64,000 nucleotides of DNA, taken from an uncultured Oscillospiraceae bacterium. GTDB taxonomy: Bacteria; Bacillota; Clostridia; Christensenellales; CAG-138. Location: contig CAYUTA010000006.1 in assembly GCA_964447605.1 (NCBI GenBank), forward strand, positions 6,118 to 70,117, given 5' to 3'. A model generated the notes under the pieces. It was not told where the DNA came from. It searched no databases and saw only the letters and a list, made by a program, of their open reading frames with translations. The translations under genes were made by a program, and so were the position numbers. This document shows, in pieces, positions 5,042 through 58,478 of the stretch. How positions within the stretch are numbered: the stretch's first letter is position 1; every line of letters starts with the position of its first letter.

Positions 5042-5054
5042 CGCGCCTGCCTCC

Positions 5055-10363: not shown

Positions 10364-10412
10364 GTTCCGACCCTTTATGTTTATTCCAATTGCCGCCGGT
10401 TCCGGCGCGGCG

Positions 10413-10838
10413 TCACGCCACAAACACCTTCATGGTGACGGTCGTGCCCTTGCCGACCTCGGATGCAATCTCCATGCTGTCAGTATATCGTTTCATGTTC
10501 GGCAGGCCCATCCCCGCGCCAAAACCCAGCGCACGGATATTATCCGGTGCGGTGGAATACCCTTCCTGCATGGCAAGTTCAATGTCCTTAATGCCCGGTC
10601 CCTCGTCGGTCAACACGATGGTGATGCAGTGCGTGTCGACAAACACTTCCGCCTTGCCGCCGCGCGCATGCACAACCATGTTGATCTCGCCTTCATACAT
10701 CGCAATGGACACCCGCCTGATCACCTCGGCCGAAAAGCCAAGCTGACGCAGCTTTTTTTTAACCTCCACAGACGCGGCGCCCGCGGACGTGAAGTTATCG
10801 CCGTCCACATCAAAGTGAAATCTCAGCGCGCCGTCCAT
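10413..10838 (-). CDS. anti-sigma-factor-type Ser/Thr kinase-like GHKL ATPase (RsbW/SpoIIAB-like)
   Basis: ATG 10838 lies 10 nt after GGAG; the ORF-track start at 10847 is a GTG overlapping the upstream stop. Motifs: TDEGPGI and GFGAGMGLPNM. Confidence 0.75.
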   Translation of the reverse strand: MDGALRFHFDVDGDNFTSAGAASVEVKKKLRQLGFSAEVIRRVSIAMYEGEINMVVHARGGKAEVFVDTHCITIVLTDEGPGIKDIELAMQEGYSTAPDNIRALGFGAGMGLPNMKRYTDSMEIASEVGKGTTVTMKVFVA

Positions 10839-10843
10839 GCCAA

Positions 10844-11188
10844 TCACACTCCGTTGCCAAGTCCTGCGGCATACAGCTTGCCGCAGGACTCATACATACG
10901 GTTCTGCGTACACAGCACCACAATATGGCTTTCCTGCGCCAGCTCGATCATTTCCGGCGTGGGGCGCTTGCTGCGCACAAACACCAGGCAGCGCATGTCC
11001 ATCATCATGGCCGTGCGAACCACCTGCGGATTGACCAGTCCCGTCAGCAGCACTGCCTGATCCTTGACATAGGCCAGCACGTCGCTCATCATGTCGCTCC
11101 CGCAGGCGGAAAGCGTCTCCTCCTCCAGCAGTTCCCCACAACAGAGCACCTCTGCGTCGAGCAATTCGGCAATCTGTCGAATTTTCAT
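10844..11188 (-). CDS. DRTGG domain-containing protein (paralog 1)
   Basis: ORF trimmed to MKIRQIAELL (ATG 11188, GGAGGG RBS). The block SDMMSDVLAYVK..VLLTGLVNPQVVRTA..LVFVRS has the same layout as the 8742..9068 protein. Confidence 0.7.
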   Translation of the reverse strand: MKIRQIAELLDAEVLCCGELLEEETLSACGSDMMSDVLAYVKDQAVLLTGLVNPQVVRTAMMMDMRCLVFVRSKRPTPEMIELAQESHIVVLCTQNRMYESCGKLYAAGLGNGV

Positions 11189-11224: not shown

Positions 11225-11719
11225 TTATCGATATTTGGCGACAATACCCTTGATATCCTCGGGGACAAGACGTCCGTATACCTCGTCGTCGATCATCAGG
11301 ACCGGCGCAAGGCCGCAGCAGCCGAGGCAGCGCGTTGCTTCCAGCGTGAAAACGCCGTCCTGCGTGGTGCCGCCCGCCTTTACGCCAAGCTCCTTTTCCA
11401 ATTCATCGAGGATGACCTGCGCGCCCTTGACGTAGCAAGCCGTTCCGAGGCACACGGCAACGCGGTGTTTGCCGGTGGGGTTGAGCGCAAACTGGGCATA
11501 GAACGTGACAACCTGATAAACCTCTTCAAGTGATACGCCCAAGCCCTCGGCGATGATGGTTTGCACCTCGACCGGCAGGTAACCGTAGATTTCCTGCGCC
11601 TTTTGCAGCACCGGCATCATTGCGCCCTGCGTATCCTTATAGCTGGCGATCACTTCTCTGAGCTGTTTCTCCTGCTCTGCCGTCCCCTGAAAGGGCACAA
11701 CAGTCTTTTGCTTTGCCAT
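11225..11719 (-). CDS. NuoE-like thioredoxin-fold [2Fe-2S] subunit (HndA/HydC)
   Basis: 164 aa with the NuoE Cys pattern CLGTACYVKGA and RCLGCCGLAP. GAGGAGG RBS. It is the first gene of the operon. Confidence 0.9.
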   Translation of the reverse strand: MAKQKTVVPFQGTAEQEKQLREVIASYKDTQGAMMPVLQKAQEIYGYLPVEVQTIIAEGLGVSLEEVYQVVTFYAQFALNPTGKHRVAVCLGTACYVKGAQVILDELEKELGVKAGGTTQDGVFTLEATRCLGCCGLAPVLMIDDEVYGRLVPEDIKGIVAKYR

Positions 11720-12097: not shown

Positions 12098-12143
12098 GAA
12101 ACGAGAAATGGAGTGCTTGGGGTATTTGGGAAACCGGTTATGC

Positions 12144-13421
12144 TTACAGGTCCACCCCGGTGAACTCGTAGTCCTTGCCCGGCAGCAACGCGTTTACAAG
12201 AACGCCAACCACCGCGGCAACCGCCAGGCCGCCGAAGGACAGCGGGCCAATCGCCAGCGGCGCCGCATTGAAGCCGAGACCGCAGACCAGAATCAACGCC
12301 GCGACAAGGACGTTTCTCATGTTCTTAAAGTCCACCTTGTTCTCCACGATGGTACGGATACCGGTTGCGGAGATCATGCCGTAGAGCACGACCGACACGC
12401 CGCCGATGATCGACCACGGAATCGTGTTGATGAACGCGTCGAAGATTGCGACAAACGAGAGGATGATCGTCATGCAGGCAGCGATAAACATGACCTTCGG
12501 GTCATACACCCTGGTCAGCGCGACAACGCCGGTGTTCTCGGAATACGTCGTGTTGGCCGGTCCACCGAGGCAGCCCGCAATCGACGTTGCGATACCGTCG
12601 CCAAGCAGCGTGCGGGTGAGGCCCGGGTCGGCGATGAAGTTCTTGCCGCAGGTCGCGCCGATGGCGCAGATGTCGCCGATGTGCTCGATCATGGCCGCAA
12701 GCGCAACCACGACGAATGTGACAATCGCGCCGATCTCAAACTTTGGCAGGAAGAACGGCGGCACCGAAACAATGGCCGCGCCCTGCAGGCTTGAGAAGTC
12801 CACCCAGGGCAGCCCGAACAGATTCGGGTTGATCAGGGTGATGATGCAGCCGATGATGTATGCGCCGAAGATACCGATGAGGATCGGCAGGATCTTGATC
12901 ATGCCCTTGCCAAACAGGTTGACGCAGATGATGATCGCAATGGCGATGATTGCCAGAATCCAGTTGGCCGACGCACTCGAGATGCCGGTCGGAGCAAGGA
13001 TCAGACCGATGAGGATGATGATCGGGCCTGTAACCACGGGCGGGAAAAGGCGCATGACGCGCTTGGGCCCGAAGACCTGGAACAGGATGGCCAGAATCAC
13101 ATACACAGCGCCCGCGCACACAACGCCGCCGGTTGCATACGGCAGCATCGCCGGATCTCCGTTTGCTACGGATGCAAACGCACCGAGGAACGCAAACGAG
13201 GAGCCCAGGAATACGGGAATCTTCCGCTTGGTGATGAAAAAGAACCAGAGCGTACCGATGCCGGCGCAGAACAGCGTTACGGCTACGGACAGACCCGTGA
13301 GCAAGGGGACGAGCACCGTGGCGCCGAACATGGCAAAGACGTGCTGGAGGCCGAGAATGAGCATTTTGCCCGTTCCAAGCTCTTTAAAGCCATCATAAAT
13401 GCCTTCAACTTTGTTTTCCAT
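12144..13421 (-). CDS. NCS2-family nucleobase:cation symporter (uracil/xanthine permease, UraA/PyrP-like)
   Basis: 425 aa polytopic protein. Motifs LGLQHVFAMFGATVLVPLLTG and IPVFLGSSFAFL match the uracil-xanthine permease family. AGGAGG RBS. Confidence 0.9.
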   Translation of the reverse strand: MENKVEGIYDGFKELGTGKMLILGLQHVFAMFGATVLVPLLTGLSVAVTLFCAGIGTLWFFFITKRKIPVFLGSSFAFLGAFASVANGDPAMLPYATGGVVCAGAVYVILAILFQVFGPKRVMRLFPPVVTGPIIILIGLILAPTGISSASANWILAIIAIAIIICVNLFGKGMIKILPILIGIFGAYIIGCIITLINPNLFGLPWVDFSSLQGAAIVSVPPFFLPKFEIGAIVTFVVVALAAMIEHIGDICAIGATCGKNFIADPGLTRTLLGDGIATSIAGCLGGPANTTYSENTGVVALTRVYDPKVMFIAACMTIILSFVAIFDAFINTIPWSIIGGVSVVLYGMISATGIRTIVENKVDFKNMRNVLVAALILVCGLGFNAAPLAIGPLSFGGLAVAAVVGVLVNALLPGKDYEFTGVDL

Positions 13422-13671
13422 TGAATTACCTCCTAATAAATTTGATTAGGTCTCCATTTCTCCCGTTATATCAAGAGCTTGCGCCCTATGATACCGTTTT
13501 GACGATACGCTTTCCCCTCCCGAGGGAAAGCGTCGGATTTGTATATAAGCACAATTTTCGAGCCGAGATTAAGAATTTTCCAGATAGGGTGTTTACTCTG
13601 CCTTGCGGTTATCACCCGGTAAGAGGAGGGGGGGCAATCCCCCATCCCGCTTACCAAGTAATTATACAACA

Positions 13672-16020
13672 TTATTTGTTGTTTGTCACCCCTTTTCGTT
13701 CGCGCAGCGCCGCAAGCACGTCGTCCGGCGTGATCGGCATGCGGTTGAAACGTACGCCGATGGCATTGTATACGGCGTTTGCAATGGCCGGCGCGCCGGG
13801 TACCATCAACGGCTCTCCGACGCCGCGCGCGCCGTAAGGCCCGGTGGGTTCCGCATGCTCGACGTACTTCACGATCATCTCGGGGATATCGTCGGCGGTC
13901 GGGATCTTGTAATCGACAAAGGATTTATTGAGCACCTTGCCATCCTTGAGCTTGAGCTCTTCAAAGATCGCCGTGCCGAGCGCCTGCACCATCGCGCCCT
14001 CGCTCTGTGCGCAGAACAGCGCCGGATTGATCACCTTACCTGCGTCAAAGCAGCTGGCCATCTTCAACACCTTGATATGCCCGGTCTCGGTATCCACCTC
14101 GACCTCGGCGCCGTTGACGCCCATCGTCCAGAACGCCGCCGGATGATGCTTGGCAACGCCCGTCTTCTTATCGGTATTGATATTGTTCTCGAGCGTGAAC
14201 GAACCGACGCCGATGGCCGGGCCGCCGTAGCCGGAGCCGTCATCAAACGCAACGCCAAGCGCAAAGTCGGAGATCGGCAGCCGGCGCTCAGGGTAAATCC
14301 TATGCATCACATAGCCGTCCTCGAACTTTAGGTCGCGCTTGACCGCGCCCATCTTGACCTGCGCAAGGTCAAGCACCTTATCGACCAGATCCTCCGCCGC
14401 CAGCTTCACCGCATTGCCCGCACAGTAGGTGGTGCGGCTTGCGACCGTCTGCCACTCGTACGGGGTATGGTCGGTATCGCCGGAGCAGAACGTGATCTTG
14501 TCGGGCGAAACGGAGAGCACCTCTGCCGCGATCTGGGGCAGCACGGTGGCCGCGCCCTGACCGATCTCCTGTCCGCTGCTCATAAGGAAGAACGTACCGT
14601 CCTCGTTCATGCGGATGATGGCGGCGCTGCCCGCGTTGGTGGGCATGGAGGGCGATTTCCAGCCGCTGGCAATGCCCTTCGCGCGAATTCTAGTCGGGCT
14701 TCCCGTCGGTTCGCAGGGCTTGTCGTACTCGATGTCCTTGAGAACGGTTTCAAGGCATTCCTGGAAGCCCGCAACGTCCATGCGTTCGCCCATACCGGTG
14801 TGGCCGCCGGGGCGCAGGCCGTTGATGCGGCGGAGCTCCACCTCCGATATCCCCATTTCCTTTGCAATTTCATCGACATTCTGTTCGATGGCAAAGTGGA
14901 TTTCACACATACCGAAGCCGCGGTACGGGCCGCCGACCGGATGGTTGGTATAGACGCAGTAGCTGTCCGTCCAGACGTTGTCGACGTCATACGGACCGGC
15001 GGAGGCCCATCCGCCCGCTTTGGTGATGTTTACGCCATACTCGGTGTAGGCGCCGCCGTCCCAGATGAAGTCGTTCTTCACGCCGAGAATCTTACCGTCG
15101 TTTCGCATGGCTGTCTTGATGGTGGCGTGCATGCCCTGCCGTACATACGCGTTGACAAACTCGTCCTCGCGGGTATACACCAGCTTGACCGGGCGGCCCG
15201 CGCAGTGCCTGGCAAGCGGAATCACGATGCCCTCGAGCGTAGTGCCGGCCTTGCTGCCAAACCCGCCGCCCACCGTGGGCGAGATGACGCGGATTTTGTT
15301 GAGCGGCATGGCAAACGCCACCGAAAGCGCCTGACGTACCGCGTACGGAGACTGGCAGCTCGCCCAGACGGTCAGCTTGCCGTCGGCCTCGTACTTGGCC
15401 ATGCAGGCGTGCGGCTCAAGCGGCACATGCTGTACGTGCGGGATATAGTAGCTATGCTCGAATACCTTGTCGGCCTTCCTGCATGCCTCGTCGAAATCGC
15501 CCTTGCGCAACACATAGTGATGCGAGATGTTTGTCCCCGGCACCGGGTAGAAGATCGGCGCGACCTTGTAGCTGCCCAACTCCGGATGGATGACGGGCGC
15601 ATCGGGCTTCATGCCCTCCACGGCGTTGGTCACCGCGGGAAGTTCCTCGTACTTGACCTTGATGAGGTCGCACGCAGCCTGCGCAATCTCCGGCGTTTCC
15701 GCCGCAACGGCCGCAACGGCCTCGCCCATGTATTTGGCGGTATCGCCCGGCTTTGCCATGAAATAGCGGTCTTCGAGATACAGGCCCGCGCGGTTTGGAT
15801 ATTCATCGCCGCAGATGCAGCAGCGCACGCCCGGCAGCTTTTTCGCCTCCGTCATGTCGACGGAAAGAATCCTGGCATGGGCATAGGGGCTGCGCACGCA
15901 CTGGGCGTACAGCATGCGCGGCAGATGGATATCGTCGACATACTCGGCGGCGCCGGTGACCTTTTTAATCGCGTCGGAACGCTGGTAGGCCTTGCCCACA
16001 TGCTTGAGCTCTTCCATCAC
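13672..16020 (-). CDS. xanthine dehydrogenase-family molybdopterin-binding large subunit (set 1)
   Basis: 782 aa. N-terminal KKVTGAAEYVDD hammerhead region, plus GGGFGSK and GARGVGEP blocks. The start forms an ATGA overlap with the 2Fe-2S subunit stop. Confidence 0.9.
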   Translation of the reverse strand: MMEELKHVGKAYQRSDAIKKVTGAAEYVDDIHLPRMLYAQCVRSPYAHARILSVDMTEAKKLPGVRCCICGDEYPNRAGLYLEDRYFMAKPGDTAKYMGEAVAAVAAETPEIAQAACDLIKVKYEELPAVTNAVEGMKPDAPVIHPELGSYKVAPIFYPVPGTNISHHYVLRKGDFDEACRKADKVFEHSYYIPHVQHVPLEPHACMAKYEADGKLTVWASCQSPYAVRQALSVAFAMPLNKIRVISPTVGGGFGSKAGTTLEGIVIPLARHCAGRPVKLVYTREDEFVNAYVRQGMHATIKTAMRNDGKILGVKNDFIWDGGAYTEYGVNITKAGGWASAGPYDVDNVWTDSYCVYTNHPVGGPYRGFGMCEIHFAIEQNVDEIAKEMGISEVELRRINGLRPGGHTGMGERMDVAGFQECLETVLKDIEYDKPCEPTGSPTRIRAKGIASGWKSPSMPTNAGSAAIIRMNEDGTFFLMSSGQEIGQGAATVLPQIAAEVLSVSPDKITFCSGDTDHTPYEWQTVASRTTYCAGNAVKLAAEDLVDKVLDLAQVKMGAVKRDLKFEDGYVMHRIYPERRLPISDFALGVAFDDGSGYGGPAIGVGSFTLENNINTDKKTGVAKHHPAAFWTMGVNGAEVEVDTETGHIKVLKMASCFDAGKVINPALFCAQSEGAMVQALGTAIFEELKLKDGKVLNKSFVDYKIPTADDIPEMIVKYVEHAEPTGPYGARGVGEPLMVPGAPAIANAVYNAIGVRFNRMPITPDDVLAALRERKGVTNNK

Positions 16021-16514
16021 TTTGCGCCTCCTTTCGCTTGGCTCTGGTTGGCCACGTCCTCGATGGCCTCAATGATGCGGATATACCCCGTGCAGCGGCA
16101 CAGGTTGCCGGAGATGGCGCTTTTAATCTCGTCGCGCGTGGGATGTGGGTTCTCGTTGAGCAGCGCCGTGCCGGACATGACGAAGCCCGGGGTGCAAAAA
16201 CCGCACTGCAGCGCCGCATGGTCGACAAACGCCTTTTGCAGCGGCGAAAGGTTGCCGTCGCGGTCGGCGATGCCCTCGATGGTGGTGATGTGCATGCCGT
16301 CCATTTCCGGCGCCAGCACAAGGCAGGCGTTGATGGGCTTGCCGTCGACAATGACCGTGCAGGCGCCGCATTCACCCGCGCCGCAGCCGACCTTGGTGCC
16401 GGTTAAGTGCAGTTCGTCTCGGATAACGTTGAGCATGGTACGGTTTGCCGGCACATCCAGCTCCACCGGTTCATCGTTGACGTAGAACTTCACAGGATAC
16501 TTCTTCATGCTCAC
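16017..16514 (-). CDS. XDH-family [2Fe-2S]-binding small subunit (set 1)
   Basis: Motifs CGAGECGACTV, CGFCTPGF and CRCTGY. The start overlaps the stop of the FAD subunit gene. Confidence 0.9.
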   Translation of the reverse strand: MSMKKYPVKFYVNDEPVELDVPANRTMLNVIRDELHLTGTKVGCGAGECGACTVIVDGKPINACLVLAPEMDGMHITTIEGIADRDGNLSPLQKAFVDHAALQCGFCTPGFVMSGTALLNENPHPTRDEIKSAISGNLCRCTGYIRIIEAIEDVANQSQAKGGAK

Positions 16515-17362
16515 TTCGCCTCCTCCTTTCCGCTGAGCGTACGCAGACCGCCACGCACCAGCGACCCGACCACGTCAAGCCGGTACGCCTTGGACGCGCG
16601 CACGTCGTCGATGGGCGATACCTCGGTGCACGCAAGCTGCGCGGCCTCCTCAATTAGCCTGTCGTCGAGCGCCCTGCCCTTCAGCAACGCCTCGGTCTTT
16701 TTCAGGCGCACGGGCGTAGGCGCGACTGCGCCGAACGCAAGCCGGTATTCGCCGTTGACCAGCGCCACAGTGGAGCAAATGGTCGAAAGATCGACCTCCC
16801 TACGCCGCGCCACCTTGGTGAATATCCCCTTGGTTCCCTCTACGTACGGAACCTTGATGGCGGTGACGATTTCATCCGGCCGCAACACGGTTTTTCGCAC
16901 GAATGTAATGAATTCCGTGATCGGAACCTCGCGCTTGCCCGCCTTACCCTCGATGCAGACGGTTGCATCCAGCGCATACAGCGGCGTGCCCGTATCGCAC
17001 AACGGCGACGCGTTGATAATGTTTCCTGCGCAGGTGGCGCGGTTACGCACCTGCTTGCTGCCAAGCGACAGCGCCGCCTCGGACAGGAACGGGTAATACG
17101 CCTTGACGTCGGCGTGTCCGCCCAATTCGTTGGCCGTGACGCACGCGCCAATTTTCAGTCCGTCCGCCTTGCTGAACGCGATGCCGTACAGTTCGGGAAT
17201 CCCCTTGATATCGATGATGTAATCCGGCTGAATCAGGCGCTCGCGCAGCTGAATTACAATGTCCGTACCGCCGTTATACACCACGGCGGCGGCGCCATAT
17301 TGCTCCCGGAGCGCAATGGCCTCGCCGATGGTCTTCGGCTGTAAAAATTCAAACTCGTTCAT
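16511..17362 (-). CDS. XDH-family FAD-binding subunit (CO dehydrogenase flavoprotein-like, set 1)
   Basis: ORF trimmed to MNEFEFLQPKT (ATG 17362, GGAGGG RBS). Contains the NGGTDIVIQLR and CAGNIINASP blocks. Confidence 0.85.
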   Translation of the reverse strand: MNEFEFLQPKTIGEAIALREQYGAAAVVYNGGTDIVIQLRERLIQPDYIIDIKGIPELYGIAFSKADGLKIGACVTANELGGHADVKAYYPFLSEAALSLGSKQVRNRATCAGNIINASPLCDTGTPLYALDATVCIEGKAGKREVPITEFITFVRKTVLRPDEIVTAIKVPYVEGTKGIFTKVARRREVDLSTICSTVALVNGEYRLAFGAVAPTPVRLKKTEALLKGRALDDRLIEEAAQLACTEVSPIDDVRASKAYRLDVVGSLVRGGLRTLSGKEEAK

Positions 17363-17419
17363 TCGCAACCCTCCAAAAACGACTGTGTGTCCAAACGGCC
17401 GCATCGCGTGTTGAAGACG

Positions 17420-17962
17420 CTATGCAACCGCAATCTCCGCCTTGCAGTCCTCCGAAACAATGGCCGCAAGCGTGGTGTTGCGCAGAAATTTCTGCCGGTT
17501 GAGGTAGGAGGTAAAATGCTCCAGATCCTCTTTTGTCTTAAGCTTCGCCGGGTCGTCGACAAAGCTGAAAAACAGGTTGGTCAGGTCGTAGCAGTGGTTG
17601 AGCACCGCGTTATATTTCTTTCCGACCAGGTTGACGGTTGTAAGCAGCGCCTGCGCCTCGTCGCGCAGCGTGTACATAACGTGCAGACGTTCCAAGATAT
17701 ATTCGTCCACACCCCGGTCAAACAGGGCGCGGATTTGCTCCGGCTGCCGCTCGCCCGGCAAAACGCATATCGTCCCGCCCTCCGTTTGGTCATAGCGGAG
17801 CGCGTCCGCCACGTCGGTCGTCGGCAGCGCATGGTCGTATGCCTCGCAAAACGCCCTTGCAAAGCGGTCGGTATACGTTTGCAGCCGCCTGACGCGCCGC
17901 TGGGACAAGAGCCAGAAAAGAACCGCCAGGCCGCCGACTATGACGATGGCAAGCATTTGCAT
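17420..17962 (-). CDS. hypothetical protein with one N-terminal TM helix
   Basis: ORF trimmed to MQMLAIVIVGGLAVLFWLL (ATG 17962, GGAGGG RBS). No recognisable motif. It is tightly packed between the cyclase and XDH genes. Confidence 0.55.
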   Translation of the reverse strand: MQMLAIVIVGGLAVLFWLLSQRRVRRLQTYTDRFARAFCEAYDHALPTTDVADALRYDQTEGGTICVLPGERQPEQIRALFDRGVDEYILERLHVMYTLRDEAQALLTTVNLVGKKYNAVLNHCYDLTNLFFSFVDDPAKLKTKEDLEHFTSYLNRQKFLRNTTLAAIVSEDCKAEIAVA

Positions 17963-18043
17963 GCGTTTCCCTCCATGTGTTTTATTAAATGGAAGAACAG
18001 GCGGCCATGCTGCACAGCCCGACCGCCTGTTTGTCAACCAAGG

Positions 18044-18844
18044 TTACGCATCCTCAAAGCCGTCGAACGCCACGACGCGGGAAATGCAGCTTTCGCCGTC
18101 AACGAGCTTCCACGGGAAGATGCCGATGACGCAGCGCTTGTTGCTGAGCTTTTCAATATCTCCGCCCAGGCATTCGGCATGAATGGCCTCGTAGGGCTTG
18201 CAGAACAGCTCAATGTGCATGGCCTGATAATGATCCGGCCACGGATAGATTTCTTCAAGGGTCTTTCCATACCTTTCCTGGAAGAGCTTGTCGCACTTGA
18301 CGGCCTCCCGCGGCTCCCAGTCACGGATCTTGGTGTTCATCGGATGGTCCGCGCTGCCGCAGTCCACGCCGATCCACTTGATCTTCTTGTCGCGCACCCA
18401 CTGCACGAACTCCAGCGACGGGCCGGGGTGGCGCAGCATGTAGCGGCGCTCGTCGGCGGTCGGGGAATCCCAGCCGTAGATATGGTAGCCGGTATTGATG
18501 ACGAGGATGTCGCCCTCGCGCACTTCCACACGCTTTTCAATGTCCTCCGGCGTATAGATGCCGAAATCCTCGGCCTGATCGGACAGATCGACCACAACGC
18601 CGGGCGCGCAGAGCTTGGTCAGCTCCAGCGCGGCCATATCGCGGCCTGCCGTGTCAAAGTGCAGCGGGCCGTCCAGGTGCGTGCCGACATGATTGGAGTG
18701 CGTCATCAACTGACCGTTGGCGCCGTTGGGCGCAAGGCGCTTAAAGAACTTCATTTGCAGCGGCTCATAGGTCGGCCACGGCGGCGTATTGATGCCAATC
18801 GGAATCGTCAGATCATACATTTTGATATCAGACCATTTGCTCAT
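18044..18844 (-). CDS. cyclase-family metal-dependent hydrolase (kynurenine formamidase / isatin hydrolase-like)
   Basis: ORF trimmed to MSKWSDIKMYDL (ATG 18844, GGAGG RBS). It carries the family signature HxGTHxDxPxH as HVGTHLDGPLHF. Confidence 0.85.
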   Translation of the reverse strand: MSKWSDIKMYDLTIPIGINTPPWPTYEPLQMKFFKRLAPNGANGQLMTHSNHVGTHLDGPLHFDTAGRDMAALELTKLCAPGVVVDLSDQAEDFGIYTPEDIEKRVEVREGDILVINTGYHIYGWDSPTADERRYMLRHPGPSLEFVQWVRDKKIKWIGVDCGSADHPMNTKIRDWEPREAVKCDKLFQERYGKTLEEIYPWPDHYQAMHIELFCKPYEAIHAECLGGDIEKLSNKRCVIGIFPWKLVDGESCISRVVAFDGFEDA

Positions 18845-19002
18845 TGTTATTGCCTCCTGATAGATAGTTTGGATTTGTCTATTGAAACCCCGTGTTACAG
18901 GGACATCAACCGAAAACCTGTTCAACCGGGCCTTACGACGCCCTTCTTGCATCATACGCGGGATCGATGCGTTTCATTTGTAACAATCATACTTATAGTT
19001 AA

Positions 19003-19030
19003 ATTTTATCACTCTAAAATGAAATGTCAA
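19003..19030 (-). promoter_or_regulatory. strong sigma-70-type promoter for the cyclase-XDH-permease string
   Basis: On the minus strand: TTGACA (19030-19025), 16-nt spacer, TGaTAAAAT (-10 hexamer at 19008-19003). It lies in a locally AT-rich patch, about 155 nt upstream of the cyclase ATG. Confidence 0.55.
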
Positions 19031-19104
19031 GCATCTGCGGACGCCGTTCCCGCCCGCCGTGCAAATAATGGCCGCGGCGGACGGGTACGAACCTGGTTGT
19101 TTGT

Positions 19105-20529
19105 TTATGCCCACGCCTCCGCACAGGCGGCGAGCGCCTTTTTGAAGCAATCCTCGGGCGGATTGACGATGCCTGCGCCGACCTGGCCAACGCCGGGATC
19201 CTTATGCGCGATACCCGTATTGATGATGGGCCGGATGCCGGTCTCGACGACCTTGCGCATGTCGATGCCCGTCGCGCTGCCGCGGAAGTTGAGCGCCGGA
19301 ATCTTATATGCCTGGCCCTCGCCAACGGTGATTTCGTACATCTGCGTGCTGTAATTGATCGCGTCGCTGACCTGACCGCCGACAAACTGCACAATTGCGG
19401 GCGCCGCCGCCATGCAGAAGCCGCCGATGCCGCCGGTTTCCGTAATGCACGAGTCGCCGAGGTCGGGCGCTGCGTCGGACTCGTCGAAGCCCGGGAAATA
19501 CAGGCCCTTCACCATCTCGGCCGGGCCGGTGAACCATTGATCCGGACCAAGTCCCGCAATGCGGATGCCAAAGTCCGTGCCGTTGCGGCACATGGTCGCC
19601 AGCACCGTGCAACAGGGAATGCCGAAAATCGGGTCGAGCGTGCACTTCATGGCCGGCATGGAGAGATTGAGGAACGTATGGTTGTTGCCGTTAATGAAGT
19701 TGTACGCATCCAGCTTTTGCTGCTGCGGGAAGTCCGATTCCATGATGGCCGGGACCAGCTCGCGGATCAGCAGGGACGTGCCGGCTTCATTCCGATTGTG
19801 CGCCTCGTCGCCCATCTGGAGCAGTTTGGCGATGAGCACCTTGACGTCGATCTCGCCCTTGATCTCCATCGCCGCCTTGAGCACGGGATAGAGCTCCTTT
19901 TCCATCCACCGCAGACGGGTGAGTACCTCGTCGTCGCACGCGCCAAAGCGCAGCACCTTGCCAAGTCCTTCGTTGATGGTACAGTACGCGCGGTTTCCGA
20001 AAGCCTTGTTCTCCAGAATCCACACCGGCATGGAGGCGGTGACCACGCCCGCCATCGGGCCGACCGCCGCGTGCATATGACAGGGGTCGAACTTGATTTC
20101 ACCACTCGCGGCCAGCTTTTCGGCCTCGGCCAGGTCCTTGGCAAGCCCTTCGTAAATCAGGCCGCCCATGACCGCGCCCTTCTGCGGGCCGGACATGCGC
20201 TCCCAGGTCACCGGCGGGCCGGCGTGCAGGATGGTCTTTTTCGTCATGCCGGGGATGACCTCGCCCGCGATGCCGAGTCCAACCAGCGTCGGCTGCGCGG
20301 CAAGGATGCGCTTGAGCGCCTCGGCGTTGGCCGCGTCGATCTTTTGGGCCAGCTCAGGGTTCTTCAGCTTGCGCAGATTGGCGGCCGCCGCCTTGTCGCC
20401 GCCCGCAATGGGCTTCCAGTCCACCTGAATCGCCGGAACGCGCTGGCTGATCAGGTCTTGATAGAAGGACTCGATGCCGAAGTTGACGACATGCAACTCT
20501 TTTTCAAACAATTCATTCAGTTTACTCAT
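19105..20529 (-). CDS. DUF1116 domain protein (YlbE/AllG-like)
   Basis: ORF trimmed to MSKLNELFEKE (ATG 20529, AGGAGGG RBS). The size and the position immediately downstream of fdrA match the fdrA-ylbE-ylbF triad. The family call is from overall resemblance, not from a catalytic motif. Confidence 0.7.
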   Translation of the reverse strand: MSKLNELFEKELHVVNFGIESFYQDLISQRVPAIQVDWKPIAGGDKAAAANLRKLKNPELAQKIDAANAEALKRILAAQPTLVGLGIAGEVIPGMTKKTILHAGPPVTWERMSGPQKGAVMGGLIYEGLAKDLAEAEKLAASGEIKFDPCHMHAAVGPMAGVVTASMPVWILENKAFGNRAYCTINEGLGKVLRFGACDDEVLTRLRWMEKELYPVLKAAMEIKGEIDVKVLIAKLLQMGDEAHNRNEAGTSLLIRELVPAIMESDFPQQQKLDAYNFINGNNHTFLNLSMPAMKCTLDPIFGIPCCTVLATMCRNGTDFGIRIAGLGPDQWFTGPAEMVKGLYFPGFDESDAAPDLGDSCITETGGIGGFCMAAAPAIVQFVGGQVSDAINYSTQMYEITVGEGQAYKIPALNFRGSATGIDMRKVVETGIRPIINTGIAHKDPGVGQVGAGIVNPPEDCFKKALAACAEAWA

Positions 20530-20542
20530 TTTCGCGCCCTCC

Positions 20543-22105
20543 TTACTGCAAGTTGGCAAGCACAAGCTCAACAAAGCGCGTTGCCTGCGCGTTGCTCGGC
20601 AGCACCACCGCGCCCGCGTCGGCAAGCTTCTTCTGCGTCTTGCTCAGGCACTGCGGGTCGCCTTCCGTACCGCACACGGCCGCAACCACGCACAGGTGCC
20701 GGCCGGCCGATTCAGCCTCCGCCCTGGCTGCGACGATTGCGTCGGAAAGGTCTGCCGCCGGGTCCTCGTGCGAGCCGTAGCCGATGACGCAGTCCACCAT
20801 GATGACCGCGCACTCCGGATCCTTGCCGTCGGTGAGTACGCGCTCTGCGCGCAGCGACGGGTCGATCATGGGATGCGGGCGGCCAACGGTAAATTCATCG
20901 TCGCCAAAGTCGAGGAACGTATGCTCGCGGCTTGTGCCGCCCTTTGCGTCGGCAAGCTTATCCTCGGCATGCAGCGGGATATTGCTGTAAATATGCTTTA
21001 GCTTGCCGATCATCAGCTTCATGGCCTCGTCGCACAGCGTGCCGCCGGTATAGAAGCCGCGCACATACTTCTGCGTCTTGGCCATTTTCCCGGCAATCTC
21101 CCCGGCCAGCGCCTCCGCCTTTTCCCGACCCATTGTGAATTCGGTGAAGTCGTTGACCGGCTCGCCCTTGCTCAGCGCCACGGCCTTGTACGCGGCATCC
21201 TCAAGCGACACGGCGGCCGTCAGGCCGAACGATTCGATCTCCTTGGGGTCGCCGCCGATAAAGATGACCACCGTGGGCTTTCCCGTCTTGGCGGCCAGCC
21301 CGAGTATCTCCGTCGCGATCTCCTTGGCGGGTGGCTTGCTGATGAGCGTGATGACCCTGGTTTTGGGATCGTTTTTGAGCGCGTCGAGACCAAGCTTCAT
21401 CATCAGCCCGCCGATTTCCTTTTTCAGGTCGCGTCCGCCGGTGCCGATGACCTGCGATACGCCGCAGCCGAGCTGGTCGATGATGGAACTGACCTCCTGC
21501 GTGCCCGTGCCGCTCGCGGCCACGATGCCGATGTCGCCCGCTTTGACCACGTTTGCAAACGCGAGCGGGACGTTATTGATAATCGCCGTTCCGCAGTCCG
21601 GTCCCATGACGAGCAGTTCCTTTTTATATGCGCATTCCTTGAGCGCTTTCTCCTCGTCGATGGTCACGTTGTCGGAAAACAGCATGACGTTGATGTCGTT
21701 GTCAAGGCAGTTCTGCGCCACGTCGGCCGCGTGACGGCCCGGCACGGAGATGACCGCCATGTTGAGGTCCGGATCGATCCTGATCGCACCGTCGAGCGTT
21801 GGCGGATAGTAGGCGGCCTCCTTGGCCTCCGACTTCTTGTTGAGCAGTTCCTCTACCTTCTTCTGTGCCGTCTCAAACACGTCGTCGCTTGCGCACTTCA
21901 CCGCCACAAAAAAGTCGTTGGGCGTGATTTCCGCGTCAAACTCAGGGGTTGCCAGACCGATGTTGTGGGCGATCTCCACGTTGAGATCCGTTCCCATGCC
22001 GACAAGCGCTTCTTCCACGCCGTCAAGTTTTTTCAGGTCCTTGGAGATGAGCATGAGGGTAACGGAATCATAATAAGCGTTCTTTCTGATTTCCAGTTTG
22101 ACCAC
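20543..22105 (-). CDS. FdrA-family protein (succinyl-CoA-synthetase-alpha-like; AllF-like)
   Basis: GTG start at 22105 with GGAGGG 7 nt upstream. The N-terminus VVKLEIRKNAYYDSVTLMLIS parallels my recollection of E. coli FdrA. Other blocks: VMGPDCGTAII, GIVAASGTGTQE, GTGGRD and FTVGRPHPMIDP. The ORF-track start at 22144 is judged too long. Confidence 0.85.
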   Translation of the reverse strand: MVKLEIRKNAYYDSVTLMLISKDLKKLDGVEEALVGMGTDLNVEIAHNIGLATPEFDAEITPNDFFVAVKCASDDVFETAQKKVEELLNKKSEAKEAAYYPPTLDGAIRIDPDLNMAVISVPGRHAADVAQNCLDNDINVMLFSDNVTIDEEKALKECAYKKELLVMGPDCGTAIINNVPLAFANVVKAGDIGIVAASGTGTQEVSSIIDQLGCGVSQVIGTGGRDLKKEIGGLMMKLGLDALKNDPKTRVITLISKPPAKEIATEILGLAAKTGKPTVVIFIGGDPKEIESFGLTAAVSLEDAAYKAVALSKGEPVNDFTEFTMGREKAEALAGEIAGKMAKTQKYVRGFYTGGTLCDEAMKLMIGKLKHIYSNIPLHAEDKLADAKGGTSREHTFLDFGDDEFTVGRPHPMIDPSLRAERVLTDGKDPECAVIMVDCVIGYGSHEDPAADLSDAIVAARAEAESAGRHLCVVAAVCGTEGDPQCLSKTQKKLADAGAVVLPSNAQATRFVELVLANLQ

Positions 22106-22997
22106 TGTTTTTCCCTCCATCATGATGTTGAATGGCAAGCACAAGCCCGGTCAGCATGTCCCCGCCGGATGTGGAACCGAAGGATGCAACGCGCTCTGCG
22201 ACAGTGAACAGACCCGCCTCGGGTGCATCCGAAAAAATGGTGTTCAGCAGAAGAAGCGCGTCCTGCGACGCCAGCCCTTCCGCGCTGTCCAAAAGAAATG
22301 TGCCGCTGATACGGTTGGTCTTTTTTGCCGCTGCGGCCGCCATGTGCGGCAAAAGCGCACGCGCGTCTTTCATGCGGCCGAACCTGCTCAGCAGCCGGAC
22401 GGTCAAAAAATACCCCGTAAGCAGGTCGTCGGAGCTCGGCGTCAGCCCAACGCCGCAGCCCGCGGTACGGGCGGCAAGCGCTCCGGCCTGCGGATCGGCC
22501 CTGCCGACCGCATCAAACAGCGCGTCAAGCCGCGGCGCAAGGAATGTTGAAAAAACGTTCCCTTCTCCGCCTGTGACCAGCGGAGAAAGCCCCTGCGCCC
22601 CCTCGCCCGCCCGCAGTACGGCAAGCACCGGCCACAGGCGGGGTTGGAGACGGGTTGGGCCGGAATCGTTTGCAATGGAATCGACCGAAAGCTCGGTCTC
22701 AACAGCGGTCTCGAGCGCAATGACCGTGCCGGTTTCAAACGCCAGGCCCGCGCGTGTGAGGCGGACTGCCTCCCCCCGCCGGATGCCCATGCGTGAAAAC
22801 GGTTCTTTGGCTTCAACGCTGCAGCCATACGGCACAAGGCCTCTCGGCGCCATGACGGCACAGATCAGCCTGCCTTCCAGCTCCACGTTCACCGCATGAT
22901 CGAACACGGTATGCACCGCGCCGTCACGCGCGCCGGACAGGGAAAGCGCCGCAAGGCGCGTGCAGACACGCTTTGCTTCCATCGCGGACGAACCCAT
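22068..22997 (-). CDS. DUF2877 domain protein (YlbF/AllH-like)
   Basis: ORF trimmed to MGSSAMEAKRV (ATG 22997; an alternative start is 22982). The call rests on position upstream of fdrA and on general resemblance (AVHTVFDHAVNVEL..). The 3' end overlaps the fdrA start by 38 nt. Confidence 0.6.
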   Translation of the reverse strand: MGSSAMEAKRVCTRLAALSLSGARDGAVHTVFDHAVNVELEGRLICAVMAPRGLVPYGCSVEAKEPFSRMGIRRGEAVRLTRAGLAFETGTVIALETAVETELSVDSIANDSGPTRLQPRLWPVLAVLRAGEGAQGLSPLVTGGEGNVFSTFLAPRLDALFDAVGRADPQAGALAARTAGCGVGLTPSSDDLLTGYFLTVRLLSRFGRMKDARALLPHMAAAAAKKTNRISGTFLLDSAEGLASQDALLLLNTIFSDAPEAGLFTVAERVASFGSTSGGDMLTGLVLAIQHHDGGKNSGQTGNQKERLL

Positions 22998-23013
22998 CTG
23001 CCTCTGAAAAGCG

Positions 23014-23379
23014 TTACGCCTTCTGGAAGATGAATCCGTATTCCTCGGTATCGATGGTTTCCTTGTAGAGGATGCGGCGCGTACGAACGACGCCGACCGT
23101 GGCCACAAGCTCCATGCCGACCTCGATGCCGTCGTCAAAGCCGATCTGGCCGGTCGCGCGCACGCCGTTTTCGAACTCGACAATGCCGAAGTTCAGCCAG
23201 GGCATCATATAGCCCTCGGGCAGGTTGTAGGCGCGCGTCCAGGTCAGCAGCTTGCACTTGCCCTCAAGCGGGATGGCTTCAAACTCGCGGCCGTCGCAGT
23301 CGGGGTTCTGACACACGATATAGCGAGGATGATGCAGTTTGCCGCACTTCTTGCATTTATAGGCATACATTTGTTCCAT
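23014..23379 (-). CDS. Zn-ribbon / OB-fold protein (DUF35, acyl-CoA-associated)
   Basis: ORF trimmed to MEQMYAYKCKKCGK (ATG 23379, GGAGGG RBS). It has a CxxC..CxxxxC zinc ribbon followed by an OB-fold-like C-terminal half. It is adjacent to the thiolase-fold gene. Confidence 0.8.
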   Translation of the reverse strand: MEQMYAYKCKKCGKLHHPRYIVCQNPDCDGREFEAIPLEGKCKLLTWTRAYNLPEGYMMPWLNFGIVEFENGVRATGQIGFDDGIEVGMELVATVGVVRTRRILYKETIDTEEYGFIFQKA

Positions 23380-23393
23380 GATCATTCCCTCCA

Positions 23394-24590
23394 TCACTTC
23401 GTTGTCAGTATGGTCGAAACGACGTTGTTGCCAAAGCCGCCAAAGTTGACCGCCAAACCGGTCTTCGCGCCCTCGACCTGACGGCCGGTGGCCTCGCCGC
23501 GCAGCTGTTTTACCAGCTCGACAATCTGCGAAACGCCCGTTGCGCCGAGCGGGTGACCCTTGGCCTTCAGTCCGCCGGAGGTGTTGATCGGCAGTTTGCC
23601 GCCGATCTTCGTTTCGCCGTTGCGCGCCGCAATGTGGCCCTGTCCGCGCGGGAAGAGACCCGTTTCCTCGGACTCGGCAATCTCAAGAATCTGGAATGCG
23701 TCATGCAGCTCGGCCACATCGATATCCTCGGGGCCCATGCCGGCCATTGCATACGCCTTCTGGGCGCTGTAACGTACCGCCAGCAGGTCGGTCGGGTTCT
23801 CGCGGTTGGCCACCACGTGGGTGTCGGTTGCCGAGGCAATGCCTGCGACGCGCACAAAGCGCTTTGCGTCGAAGCCGAATTCCTCGACCTTGTCCTTGGC
23901 GACGAGCAGCACCGCCGCCGCGCCGTCGGACACCGGGCACATATCAAACTGGCGCAGCGGGTCCGCCACCAACGGGTTGGTCGCATTGATGTACGCCGGG
24001 TTGGTGATGCGCTCCAGTATAACCGGGCGCTGAATGTGCGCGTTGGGGTTATGGCAGGCGTTGTCGTGGTTCTTTACCGAGATGATGGACAGATCCTTGC
24101 TCTCCACGCCGTATTGAATCATGCACAGGCGGGTGAACAGGCCGGCAAACGACGGCAGCGTGCAGCCGTACACATACTCGCCCTCGGGATGGAGCATCGT
24201 GGCGACAAAGTCCGTGCCCTCCCAGCCGGTGATGGCGCGCATGCCCTCGCCGCCGACGACGAGCACGCAGTCGCTCATGCCCGCGGCAATGGCCATTACG
24301 CCCAGCTTCACGGAGGAAGCGCCGGATGCCGGACCGTTCTCCACGGTTTCGGCCGCGGCGGGACGGAGGTTGAGCGTATCCACTACGGCGGAGGCCGCGC
24401 CGCTGATGCGGCTGACCATGCCGGAGCCCATCGAGCCCACGAATACCTGATCGATCACGTTCTTGCGGCCGGTCTTCGCGCCCGCGTCATCCATCGCCTG
24501 CAATGCCGCCTCGCACAGCATGTCGATGAACGGAACGCTGGACTTTCCGAATTTGGTATGGCCGACGCCAACAATTCCTACTTGTCTCAT
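23394..24590 (-). CDS. thiolase-fold protein lacking the nucleophilic Cys (SCP-x / Ltp2-like)
   Basis: 398 aa with a thiolase-like layout. The C-terminal NTSGGLKAKGHPLGATG block is present. The loop where thiolases carry CxSG reads ENGPASGASS (24321-24341). Confidence 0.8.
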   Translation of the reverse strand: MRQVGIVGVGHTKFGKSSVPFIDMLCEAALQAMDDAGAKTGRKNVIDQVFVGSMGSGMVSRISGAASAVVDTLNLRPAAAETVENGPASGASSVKLGVMAIAAGMSDCVLVVGGEGMRAITGWEGTDFVATMLHPEGEYVYGCTLPSFAGLFTRLCMIQYGVESKDLSIISVKNHDNACHNPNAHIQRPVILERITNPAYINATNPLVADPLRQFDMCPVSDGAAAVLLVAKDKVEEFGFDAKRFVRVAGIASATDTHVVANRENPTDLLAVRYSAQKAYAMAGMGPEDIDVAELHDAFQILEIAESEETGLFPRGQGHIAARNGETKIGGKLPINTSGGLKAKGHPLGATGVSQIVELVKQLRGEATGRQVEGAKTGLAVNFGGFGNNVVSTILTTK

Positions 24591-24649
24591 TCTTCTTTCC
24601 TTTCCGAAAAACTCGTTTTTCAGTCCGTTGAATGTCGCTAAAAATCGGC

Positions 24650-25321
24650 TCAGACGCTGATTTTGGCGGGCATGTGCAGCACTTTGTTGGCCTCGATGAC
24701 ATCTTCAAACGCAGGGCGAATGCCGACGTTCTTGTTGGCCTTATGCTTCTCCCACAGCTCGCGGGTCAGCACGAAGGTGGGCACGCCGCCAAGCTCGTGC
24801 GCGCACTCCGGACGGGATTCGAGTTCGTACTCGATCATCCAGCGCTTGAAGCCGTTCGGGCTCTCGGCCACGATCCAGACCTCTTCCTGATCCATGAAAT
24901 CGAAATGATACTCCATCTTGGCGGCAAACAGCTGGGCGCCGACGCGCGCGCCGCGCTTGAGCGTCATGGTGTGATACGACATGCCGATCTTCTCGTTGAC
25001 AAGACGGCCGTTGACGATGCCGGCGATCTCGCCGTCCACCGCGCCGACGAACAGATATTCGTCCTGCACGCGATAGCGCAGCATGCCCAGAAGCTCCGCG
25101 ATGATGCGGGCGGAAACGATGTCGTAAAAGTCCTTCTGGTGGTCAAGCAGCACCTTGATGCCGTCGATGATCATCTCGGTCTCTTCCGGGGTGGCTTCGC
25201 GAACGAGCATATCCTCGCCGGTGGTCAGGGGGATTACTTTGGGGGTGTAGGGCTTCATGCCAATCGTCGGGGGTCTGAGTTTGGCTTCCATTTCGTCTAC
25301 GATGATGTCATACTTGCTCAT
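24650..25321 (-). CDS. hypothetical protein, GNAT-like acyl-CoA acyltransferase fold
   Basis: 223 aa with an AAGGAGG RBS. AVDGEIAGIVNG followed by KRGARVGAQLFAAKMEY resembles GNAT beta4 / motif A (R/Q-x-x-G-x-G/A). No closer family was recognised. Confidence 0.55.
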   Translation of the reverse strand: MSKYDIIVDEMEAKLRPPTIGMKPYTPKVIPLTTGEDMLVREATPEETEMIIDGIKVLLDHQKDFYDIVSARIIAELLGMLRYRVQDEYLFVGAVDGEIAGIVNGRLVNEKIGMSYHTMTLKRGARVGAQLFAAKMEYHFDFMDQEEVWIVAESPNGFKRWMIEYELESRPECAHELGGVPTFVLTRELWEKHKANKNVGIRPAFEDVIEANKVLHMPAKISV

Positions 25322-25648
25322 GTGTGTGCCTCCTTATGAAACTGTTTGATATGATATATGCCGCCACTCACCGTGGCTTCACTGTTATTGTAGCGCCATT
25401 ATGAAGTCATGTCCAGTATTTCTTGCAAAATATTTTTCTGTAAATGCGATTTTTCTCAAAAATATTTCGTTTTGTCCATAATTTATCCCATGCCGCGGGC
25501 GAATTTTGCAAAGTATATATTTTTTAAGCTGTTTTCCCGCTTTTTCCGTACTGTCACAGACGTTTTCAGGCATTTGTCCGCACGCATTTTACGCGTGCAG
25601 CTTTTCCTGCGGGAACGGCCCGACACATGCAAGGATTTGCTATTTTTT

Positions 25649-25680: not shown

Positions 25681-25728
25681 TTCCGCACTGTGACCGTTGC
25701 TTTATCGCCGGTTGTGGGTGCAACACCG

Positions 25729-58477: not shown

Positions 58478-58478
58478 C

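Follow-up and report, generated by a model that had tools for sequence, protein, structure and literature searches.

A conserved gene cluster in an uncultured Oscillospiraceae bacterium predicted to support anaerobic, energy-conserving oxidative breakdown of pyrimidines

The window analyzed here is a 64,000-nucleotide stretch of DNA from an uncultured Oscillospiraceae bacterium (assembly GCA_964447605.1, contig CAYUTA010000006.1, forward-strand positions 6,118 to 70,117), and its minus strand carries, between positions 12144 and 25321, the twelve closely spaced open reading frames (ORFs) that are the subject of this study. An earlier note, made from the sequence without database searches, had placed twelve genes at these coordinates and proposed that they encode an undescribed anaerobic pathway for an N-heterocycle. 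Family assignment through Pfam and NCBIfam profile searches of the window ORFs bore out the twelve genes and their families (Table 1). They comprise an NCS2 permease, the molybdopterin (Mo), FAD and 2Fe-2S subunits of a xanthine dehydrogenase (XDH)-family hydroxylase, a small protein, a cyclase-family hydrolase, homologues of AllG, AllF and AllH, a DUF35 protein, a thiolase-fold protein and a GNAT-fold protein of 223 amino acids.

Table 1. Positions of the genes and promoter-like motifs discussed in the text, with the evidence for each assignment.
Feature	Positions	Strand	Evidence or remark
NCS2 permease, uracil-permease type, predicted importer	12144..13421	-	PF00860, TIGR00801
Mo (molybdopterin) subunit of XDH-family hydroxylase; predicted uracil/thymine C6 hydroxylase	13672..16017 (ORF to 16020)	-	Ald_Xan_dh_C, MoCoBD_1, MoCoBD_2
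2Fe-2S subunit of hydroxylase	16017..16508 (ORF to 16514)	-	Fer2_2 (115 bits), Fer2
FAD subunit of hydroxylase, likely start MNEFEF	16511..17362 (ORF to 17404)	-	FAD_binding_5 (161 bits), CO_deh_flav_C
Small protein, N-terminal hydrophobic segment	17420..17962 (ORF to 18037)	-	no family match
Cyclase-family metal hydrolase, predicted ring-opening amidohydrolase	18044..18844 (ORF to 18955)	-	PF04199, 122 bits
Sigma-70-like promoter motif TTGACA-16-TAAAAT with TG extension	19003..19030	-	in 260-nucleotide AllG-cyclase gap
AllG/DUF1116 homologue, subunit of predicted carbamoyltransferase	19105..20529 (ORF to 20625)	-	PF06545, 318 bits
AllF/FdrA homologue, succinyl-CoA-synthetase-alpha-like	20543..22123 (ORF to 22144)	-	NF004760, 499 bits
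AllH/DUF2877 homologue	22068..22982 (ORF to 23183)	-	PF11392, 75 bits
DUF35/zinc-ribbon OB-fold protein, probable scaffold partner of thiolase-fold protein	23014..23379 (ORF to 23397)	-	zf-ChsH2; BbsA-like, 41 bits
SCP2/archaeal-type thiolase-fold protein without nucleophilic Cys	23394..24590	-	Thiolase_N, Thiolase_C_1
GNAT-fold protein of 223 amino acids, unannotated family	24650..25321	-	AlphaFold model and Foldseek
Promoter-like motif TGGACA-17-TACAAT, upstream of first gene of operon	25387..25415	-	10 of 12 consensus matches only
Cytosine-deaminase-like amidohydrolase, possible accessory (cytosine to uracil), 36 kb away	60948..62303	+	NF005748, 411 (cut-off 438)
HydA-like gene	3155..5068		hydrogenase-related block
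NuoE-like thioredoxin-type 2Fe-2S proteins	6867..7232 and 11225..11719		hydrogenase-related block
Second hydrogenase-like protein with FeS domain	9065..10423		hydrogenase-related block
Histidine-kinase-like ATPase	10413..10847		hydrogenase-related block

Several of the mechanically delimited ORFs were over-extended at their 5' ends, and the likely starts lie at 17362 for the FAD subunit, 17962 for the small protein, 18844 for the cyclase, 20529 for AllG and 22982 for AllH. The cyclase probably starts at the ATG at 18844, which is preceded by AGGAGG. With the revised starts, gene lengths agree with those called on a metagenomic contig of 91% identity, and the length of the FAD subunit fits a 277-amino-acid orthologue in a related locus (L003). 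The genes are packed in two strings, as the earlier note described, and the promoter motif that it placed between them at 19030–19003 is present, with 11 of 12 consensus matches in addition to the TG extension. The separateness of the strings was not upheld, as relatives carry a single tight operon. The gap between AllG and the cyclase spans 260 nucleotides in the window versus 42 in a Flavonifractor-type human-gut contig (L086), and because the gap is so much shorter in relatives the internal promoter is lineage-specific; the two strings are therefore a local arrangement and not evidence for separate functions. A lack of co-regulation between the strings, which the earlier note had named as speaking against its pathway, is not indicated by this operon structure. 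A riboswitch in the gap or upstream of the operon was considered and dropped, as an Rfam search of positions 11500–28000 (E ≤ 1) gave no matches and the gap is short and unconserved in relatives.

A scan of one genome per GTDB species identified relatives of the cyclase in at least 587 species, and the best 80 loci were fetched and mapped by tblastn with the twelve window proteins and by clustering of all locus ORFs. Co-occurrence was counted in the 48 related loci with at least 6 kb of flank on both sides of the cyclase. Directly upstream of the cyclase, AllG is encoded in 47 of these loci and AllF in 46; AllH, which is divergent, was detected in 40 (a lower bound), the NCS2 permease in 36 and the XDH trio in 33. 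The gene set thus recurs, which the earlier note had suggested should be checked, and its synteny is conserved across phyla far beyond chance. Flavonifractor-type human-gut contigs carry all twelve genes in a single compact operon, with a PucR-family regulator gene divergently oriented ahead of it, and in Alkaliphilus metalliredigens the order is XDH, permease, PucR, AllH, AllF, a 56-amino-acid ORF, AllG, cyclase, CN-hydrolase and CoA-transferase. Isolates with the cluster include Flavonifractor, Anaerotruncus colihominis, Anaerocolumna aminovalerica and Clostridium rhizosphaerae. The Lachnospiraceae locus L050 encodes proteins that share 70% (cyclase), 69% (AllG), 62% (Mo subunit) and 65% (permease) identity with those of the window. 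The XDH trio has been lost from the operon in close relatives of the window (L006, L010, L011 and L015, from Christensenellaceae and relatives), in which the order is GNAT, thiolase-like, DUF35, AllHFG, cyclase, (small protein) and permease.

The cyclase scores well above the Pfam gathering cut-off (122 bits versus 23 for PF04199) and carries the motif HVGTHLDGPLH, in keeping with an HxGTHxDxPxH metal motif that is invariant in the alignment of its relatives (A1). Homologues with 65–92% identity occur across the Clostridia, Synergistota, Thermotogota, Anaerolineae and others, the nearest (92%) being from metagenome-assembled genomes (MAGs) of Christensenellaceae. Fold and metal motif are shared with KynB and with isatin hydrolase, which is a precedent for the opening of a lactam ring. 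However, the window cyclase is distant from kynurenine formamidase and isatin hydrolase (E about 1e-8 to members in the Protein Data Bank, PDB), falls below the arylformamidase equivalog cut-off (48.7 versus 223 for TIGR03035) and belongs to a separate, very highly conserved subfamily with a C-terminal part that is 60 residues longer. The adjacent small protein, described in the earlier note as membrane-anchored, has 180 amino acids and no match in Pfam or NCBIfam; counted from its probable true start, MQMLAIVIVGGLAVLFWLL, its N-terminus is hydrophobic. It is kept at the same position, with 32–59% identity, only in close relatives; these include relatives whose operon has no XDH (L006 and L015), so the protein is not simply an XDH accessory.

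Upstream of the cyclase, three adjacent genes of the FdrA, DUF1116 and DUF2877 families reproduce the architecture of the Escherichia coli AllFGH complex. The window AllF lies above the cut-off of its NCBI model (499 versus 433), and matches the FdrA structure 3dmy at 289 bits; identity to the E. coli proteins is 39% for AllF, 46% for AllG and, over 113 residues, 30% for AllH. AllFGH has been shown to interconvert oxalurate and phosphate with carbamoyl phosphate and oxamate, and oxalurate is the only substrate demonstrated for the family (PMC11326118). Homologues outside allantoin contexts have already been noted, among them allFGHK homologues beside biuret/triuret genes in nitrifiers, and were simply assumed to act on oxalurate (PMC12625717). 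The window triad differs from the E. coli one in its order (H-F-G versus F-G-H) and in its setting, as triads of this type lie beside a cyclase-family hydrolase and never beside allB/C/D/E in the examined loci. Searches with E. coli AllB, AllC, AllD, AllE and AllK as tblastn queries found no homologue in the window, such that the allantoin-gene and allK association of AllFGH is missing there, and no scanned window ORF matched the barbiturase/AtzD (AtzD/TrzD) family; the earlier note had claimed the absence of allantoinase, allantoate amidohydrolase, ureidoglycolate dehydrogenase and barbiturase. Allantoin genes likewise accompany the triad in none of the related loci examined; that note had counted a triad acting only on oxalurate, with the canonical allantoin genes elsewhere in the genome, as evidence against its pathway.

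The subunits are also partitioned differently. Residues 14–56 of the window AllG align with the tail at the C-terminus of E. coli AllF (513–555), so that the first ~55 residues of AllG (20362–20529) are a fused counterpart of this tail; in A. metalliredigens, a separate 56-amino-acid ORF lies between AllF and AllG (L001, 8477–8647). The movement of this segment between subunits suggests that it contributes to the AllF–AllG interface.

The permease belongs to the NCS2 superfamily (PF00860, 286 bits; TIGR00801, 315.8 against a cut-off of 291.8), and its best specific model is the uracil permease (NF007995, 296 bits), followed by RutG (283) and the xanthine permease pbuX (196). The permeases are uracil-type in five of six sampled clusters. 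At the orthologous position in Clostridium rhizosphaerae (L062), in an operon that otherwise has the architecture of the window, GNAT/thiolase-like/DUF35 trio included, the permease exceeds the uracil permease equivalog cut-off (639 versus 477).

Both the Mo, FAD and 2Fe-2S subunit architecture of XDH and its catalytic Glu are present in the window hydroxylase. The Mo subunit scores below the cut-off of every NCBIfam equivalog, including its top match XdhA (555 versus 780) and PucD (428 versus 784), and among solved structures its closest relatives are not XDH but 4-hydroxybenzoyl-CoA reductase and quinoline oxidoreductase. Aligned to a bovine XDH reference fragment whose numbering is internally consistent and reproduces E802, R880, R912, F914, F1009 and E1261, its GVGEP falls on the catalytic E1261 and its YRGFG on R912/F914, while the xanthine-binding residues are not kept (E802 is a gap or Ala, R880 is Ala334). 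This alignment argues against a classical xanthine site and offers no positive evidence for uracil. A second XDH-family trio lies elsewhere on the minus strand of the window (2Fe-2S, 57136–57621; FAD, 57605–58510; Mo, 58479–60875), and its Mo subunit likewise has neither the bovine-type E802 nor R880. The cytosine-deaminase-like amidohydrolase gene stands divergently beside this second trio; its product is 67% identical to a deaminase-like protein encoded directly downstream of the cyclase in two related loci (L034 and L035) and may supply the pathway from cytosine or a related amino-pyrimidine. Beside several of the related clusters (L086/L087, 6753–8125; L042–L048) there are selenium-related genes for a Se/S carrier protein, a class-V aminotransferase and YqeB/YqeC, which suggests that the hydroxylase of those hosts is a selenium-dependent Mo enzyme.

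Annotation of the recurrent neighbors in the fetched loci with NCBIfam and Pfam revealed a consistent accessory repertoire. PucR-family regulators occur in 27 loci, family-III CoA-transferases in 20 (295 bits against CoA:oxalate CoA-transferase), and CN-hydrolases, amidase-signature enzymes and cytosine-deaminase-like amidohydrolases in nine each. Carbamate kinase is encoded inside the cluster in eight loci, above the arcC equivalog cut-off (372.6 versus 358.25). A Na+-translocating decarboxylase beta subunit (498 bits versus a cut-off of 191) is found in seven loci and an MmdA-type carboxyltransferase (879 bits), with a biotin carrier and an OAD-gamma protein, in six. XdhC and the selenium-hydroxylase markers YqeB/YqeC are also among the neighbors, and a few loci have an NCS1 cytosine/uracil-type permease and a PreA-like protein. 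MadA/MdcA, the alpha subunit of malonate decarboxylase (PF16957, 825 bits), is present in three Lachnospiraceae loci (L050–L052), where the order is MadA, MmdA-type carboxyltransferase, OAD gamma, biotin carrier, Na+ decarboxylase beta, amidase, AllF, AllG, cyclase, XDH and permease. Carboxydothermus islandicus (L071) has PucR, AllHFG, CoA-transferase, cyclase, carbamate kinase, CN-hydrolase, the decarboxylase set and XDH in one stretch. Malonate decarboxylase genes adjoin the core in L050–L052, L071 and L030 and are not found in the window. The sets in L050–L052 resemble the biotin-dependent, Na+-translocating malonate decarboxylase of Malonomonas rubra in having MadA, carboxyltransferase, biotin carrier, gamma and beta beside the core, but differ in that no acyl carrier protein subunit was seen.

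From the observed families, synteny and accessory repertoire, it is considered fairly probable that the twelve genes encode an anaerobic, energy-conserving oxidative pyrimidine pathway that leads from uracil through barbiturate and ureidomalonate to carbamoyl phosphate and malonamate, each substrate and reaction being a prediction. The NCS2 permease would import uracil, and possibly also thymine, and the XDH-family Mo/FAD/2Fe-2S enzyme would hydroxylate C6 to give barbiturate, passing the electrons to NAD+ or ferredoxin and not to O2. The cyclase-family metal hydrolase would then open a ring amide to yield ureidomalonate (N-carbamoylmalonamate), and the AllF/AllG/AllH-like complex would direct phosphate onto the carbamoyl group to release carbamoyl phosphate and malonamate. 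Ureidomalonate is the next higher homologue of oxalurate, and therefore the change of specificity asked of the triad is chemically modest. ATP would be formed by carbamate kinase, encoded within the cluster in relatives and, by this prediction, elsewhere in the present genome. In many relatives malonamate would be deamidated (amidase or CN-hydrolase), activated (CoA-transferase or MadA) and decarboxylated by the Na+-pumping biotin enzyme; in the window the GNAT-fold, Cys-less thiolase-fold and DUF35 trio stands in place of those genes. The C3 unit would pass from malonamate through malonate to acetate or acetyl-CoA and CO2, and thymine would give the methyl series. Uracil (or thymine) is the only common heterocycle that fits every element, and the host of this predicted route would most likely be an oxygen-avoiding gut or sediment bacterium that draws ATP from the urea-like part of the ring. 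Comparative genomics thus supports the sequence of import, Mo-dependent hydroxylation, ring opening, phosphorolysis and CoA-level processing set out in the earlier note, and of the homologues that it left as alternatives the C3 compound ureidomalonate is favored by the uracil-type permeases, cytosine deaminase genes and malonate-type decarboxylases of the related loci. The ATP yield that it foresaw is backed by the carbamate kinase genes of relatives and not by the window, where it would need a gene elsewhere in the genome.

Several observations weigh against the uracil pathway. The XDH trio is missing within 10 kb in about a third of the loci, including the close relatives L006 and L015, which keep the same permease, and no AllH/DUF2877 was detectable in the Lachnospiraceae loci L050–L053, in which AllH is either dispensable or encoded elsewhere in the genome. 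(These four MAG loci have an amidase-signature gene directly upstream of AllF.) Carbamate kinase, amidase, CoA-transferase and decarboxylase genes were all missing from the 64-kb window, as was a PucR regulator; the case for malonate and for ATP thus draws on orthologous loci, and both ATP conservation and regulation depend on genes outside the window. The window permease, at 296, falls short of the uracil permease cut-off of 477, and the argument from the Mo subunit leans on the bovine reference fragment. PucR-type regulators and the YqeB/YqeC maturation genes are classically tied to purine catabolism. Finally, the position of AllF above the FdrA cut-off leaves room for an unchanged specificity for oxalurate.

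This last point leads to an alternative in which the triad is a true, oxalurate-specific oxamate carbamoyltransferase, and the XDH and cyclase supply oxalurate from some other ring, such as a hydantoin, a parabanate-type imidazolidine or an oxidized purine fragment; after deamidation of the oxamate, the family-III CoA-transferase would act on the oxalate. The resemblance of AllF and AllG to their E. coli counterparts, the score of the recurrent CoA-transferase against CoA:oxalate CoA-transferase and the standing of oxalurate as the sole demonstrated substrate of the family (PMC11326118) are all compatible with it. Yet neither the window nor the examined loci contain allantoin-pathway genes, no oxalyl-CoA decarboxylase was seen in them, and the co-occurring decarboxylases are of the MadA/MmdA malonate or methylmalonyl-CoA type. 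The cluster permeases are uracil-type, and one XDH-type hydroxylation plus one hydrolysis would not obviously turn a common metabolite into oxalurate. This alternative is improbable. A classical clostridial purine fermentation appears less probable again: XDH would form xanthine, the cyclase would be the Mn-dependent xanthine amidohydrolase that yields 4-ureido-5-imidazolecarboxylate, and the triad would take the ureido group as carbamoyl phosphate. The genome paper of Clostridium acidurici in 2012 (PMC3519856) could not yet assign genes to xanthine amidohydrolase and the steps after it, which leaves a vacancy that the cyclase could fill, and the PucR regulators, the YqeB/YqeC markers and the XdhA match of the Mo subunit have a purine flavor. 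Purine breakdown, however, produces no malonate, and MadA and (methyl)malonyl-CoA-type decarboxylases have been recruited to these clusters; the permeases are of the uracil and not the pbuX type in all but one of the sampled clusters, the Mo subunit has neither of the xanthine-binding Glu and Arg residues, genes for the imidazole ring (aminoimidazole or imidazolone hydrolases, formiminotransferase) were not seen in the loci, and an aryl-urea is a poorer analogue of oxalurate than is ureidomalonate. The purine explanation is accordingly held to be very unlikely.

A broader possibility is that cyclase and triad form a general module that converts cyclic ureides to carbamoyl phosphate, with a ring that varies by lineage and that in the window is not uracil but another oxo-pyrimidine, an s-triazine such as cyanurate, or a modified base. 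The loci without XDH and the varying downstream modules are in line with this idea, as are the allFGHK homologues beside biuret/triuret genes (PMC12625717) and the Lacrimispora indolis-type loci with two deaminases (TRZ/ATZ and CodA types), a pbuX-like permease and carbamate kinase. In these XDH-less variants (L023–L026 from L. indolis and related Clostridium spp., and L021), the order is PucR, AllH-AllF-AllG-cyclase, an 8-oxoguanine-deaminase/TRZ-ATZ-like hydrolase, a CodA-like hydrolase, DUF6198, a short-chain fatty acid transporter, carbamate kinase and the pbuX-like permease, and the variants may act on an already oxidized or aminated ring, e.g., an amino-oxo-pyrimidine or an s-triazine. 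For XDH-less variants the general module is a real option, and it may apply to the window too; but the XDH and uracil-type permease of the window match those of loci with malonate-processing genes, with core enzymes 62–70% identical, and a ring other than uracil is thus rather unlikely there. Two further candidates were rejected. The reductive urate (2,8-dioxopurine) pathway, an anaerobic route that was recently solved, uses a different gene set, namely XdhD, YgfK, SsnA and YgeW/X/Y (PMC12507026), and indole/isatin degradation through an XDH-type hydroxylase and isatin hydrolase was set aside on account of the nucleobase permease, the link to AllFGH and the presence of malonate genes.

The trio at the upstream end of the operon consists of the GNAT-fold, thiolase-fold and DUF35 proteins. 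The 223-amino-acid protein has no sequence match in Pfam, NCBIfam (E ≤ 0.01) or the PDB, and its 2359 homologues are mostly named 'hypothetical'. An AlphaFold model built on 20 homologues (pLDDT 83) gave Foldseek matches with E values of 1e-7 to 1e-5 and a TM of about 0.5, and nearly all of the 50 top matches listed are annotated as GNAT acyltransferases. The protein, judging by this model, is GNAT-like at the level of fold only, and the GNAT-like label of the earlier note holds in that sense and not as membership in a curated sequence family. Over its whole length, the thiolase-fold protein aligns with thiolases of the archaeal/SCP2 type (263 bits to PDB 7yvy), and it has ENGPASG where the solved thiolases 7yvy and 6esq have AACASG, which replaces the nucleophilic Cys with Pro. 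All of 20 orthologues compared, with identities as low as 53%, share this replacement, and the 'Cys-less' description given in the earlier note is correct. Without the Cys no acyl-enzyme can form, but stabilization of an enolate for decarboxylation would still be possible. The DUF35 gene always adjoins the thiolase-fold gene in related loci.

The trio is present in 25 of the fetched loci and never together with the CoA-transferase (20 loci) or the amidase/CN-hydrolase (18 loci). This mutual exclusion is most simply explained if the trio replaces amidase and CoA-transferase as an alternative means of processing the same amide. GNAT folds carry acyl groups from CoA to nitrogen or back, and the one in malonyl-CoA decarboxylase catalyzes a decarboxylation; DUF35 proteins scaffold thiolase-fold partners, and a thiolase fold that lacks the Cys and performs another chemistry has a precedent in Ltp2. 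Like the archaeal thiolase/HMG-CoA synthase pair, which DUF35 scaffolds, the trio might be a channeling complex that converts malonamate and CoA directly to acetyl-CoA, CO2 and NH3, in which the GNAT would operate 'in reverse' from amide nitrogen to CoA thiol and the reaction would be pulled by decarboxylation on the thiolase-fold subunit. This mechanism is speculative and rather unlikely. Were it true, uracil fermentation would gain a second ATP via acetyl phosphate, by a previously unknown way to conserve amide-bond energy. The pairing of an SCP2/archaeal-type thiolase fold with a DUF35 zinc ribbon is shared with the archaeal thiolase/HMG-CoA synthase/DUF35 complex and the steroid Ltp2-ChsH2(DUF35) aldolase, whereas the window partner is a GNAT fold, not an HMG-CoA synthase or hydratase, and the context is nucleobase catabolism.

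Other features of the window have a less direct relationship to the predicted pathway. The permease gene is followed directly downstream by a group of genes related to [FeFe]-hydrogenase (3155–11719), which, on adjacency alone, could dispose of the hydroxylase electrons as H2. At the other end, a mechanical ORF of 366 amino acids (25915–27015, minus strand) is Ala/Gly/Arg-rich, of low complexity and without a family match, and is probably not a gene. Synteny with L003 leads to the expectation of a phosphofructokinase gene on the opposite strand at ~26188–27168.

The intermediates proposed here have precedent in aerobes. The aerobic route from uracil through barbiturate and ureidomalonate to malonate and urea is established (PMC3758960, citing Soong et al.). 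The predicted pathway shares with the aerobic actinobacterial one (Rhodococcus erythropolis) the intermediates from uracil to a malonate-level C3 unit and, as well, the assignment of the first step to a Mo/FAD/Fe-S dehydrogenase. Soong et al. reportedly attributed the first step of the oxidative route to such an enzyme. The differences begin with ring opening, which in the window is assigned to the cyclase/KynB family and not to the AtzD/barbiturase 'Toblerone' fold. In the Rhodococcus type a hydrolytic ureidomalonase releases urea, whereas here the ureido group would end up in carbamoyl phosphate, a source of ATP, and the clusters are hosted by strict anaerobes with either Na+-pumping decarboxylation or the GNAT/thiolase-like/DUF35 module downstream. 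Compared with E. coli AllFGH and AllK, of which the kinase has an in-cluster counterpart in the eight relatives with carbamate kinase, the predicted chemistry is the same, namely phosphorolysis of an N-carbamoyl acyl-amide to carbamoyl phosphate (PMC11326118 for the E. coli system), and the predicted substrate is one methylene longer. With the intermediates already known, what would be new are the non-homologous or re-purposed enzymes, the conservation of energy and the downstream module. A search of full-text literature, with most subscription journals outside its coverage, found no description of the cluster or of an anaerobic barbiturate/ureidomalonate/malonamate route.

Pyrimidine catabolism in anaerobes is described in textbooks as reductive (PreTA/dihydropyrimidinase), and the oxidative barbiturate route is held to be rare and limited to a few aerobes. 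If the prediction is true, a widespread, oxidative and ATP-yielding pyrimidine route in strict anaerobes would change this reductive-only picture. It would also provide functions for three families whose annotation in these genomes is poor, namely the cyclase subfamily, the AllFGH homologues that are not involved in allantoin metabolism and the GNAT-fold family (~2,400 members), and would add substrates to those of the AllFGH transcarbamylases, a class defined only recently. The species that carry the cyclase subfamily include human-gut Flavonifractor, Anaerotruncus, Christensenellaceae and Lachnospiraceae, and the pathway would thus be relevant to how gut microbes handle pyrimidines and possibly fluoropyrimidine drugs.

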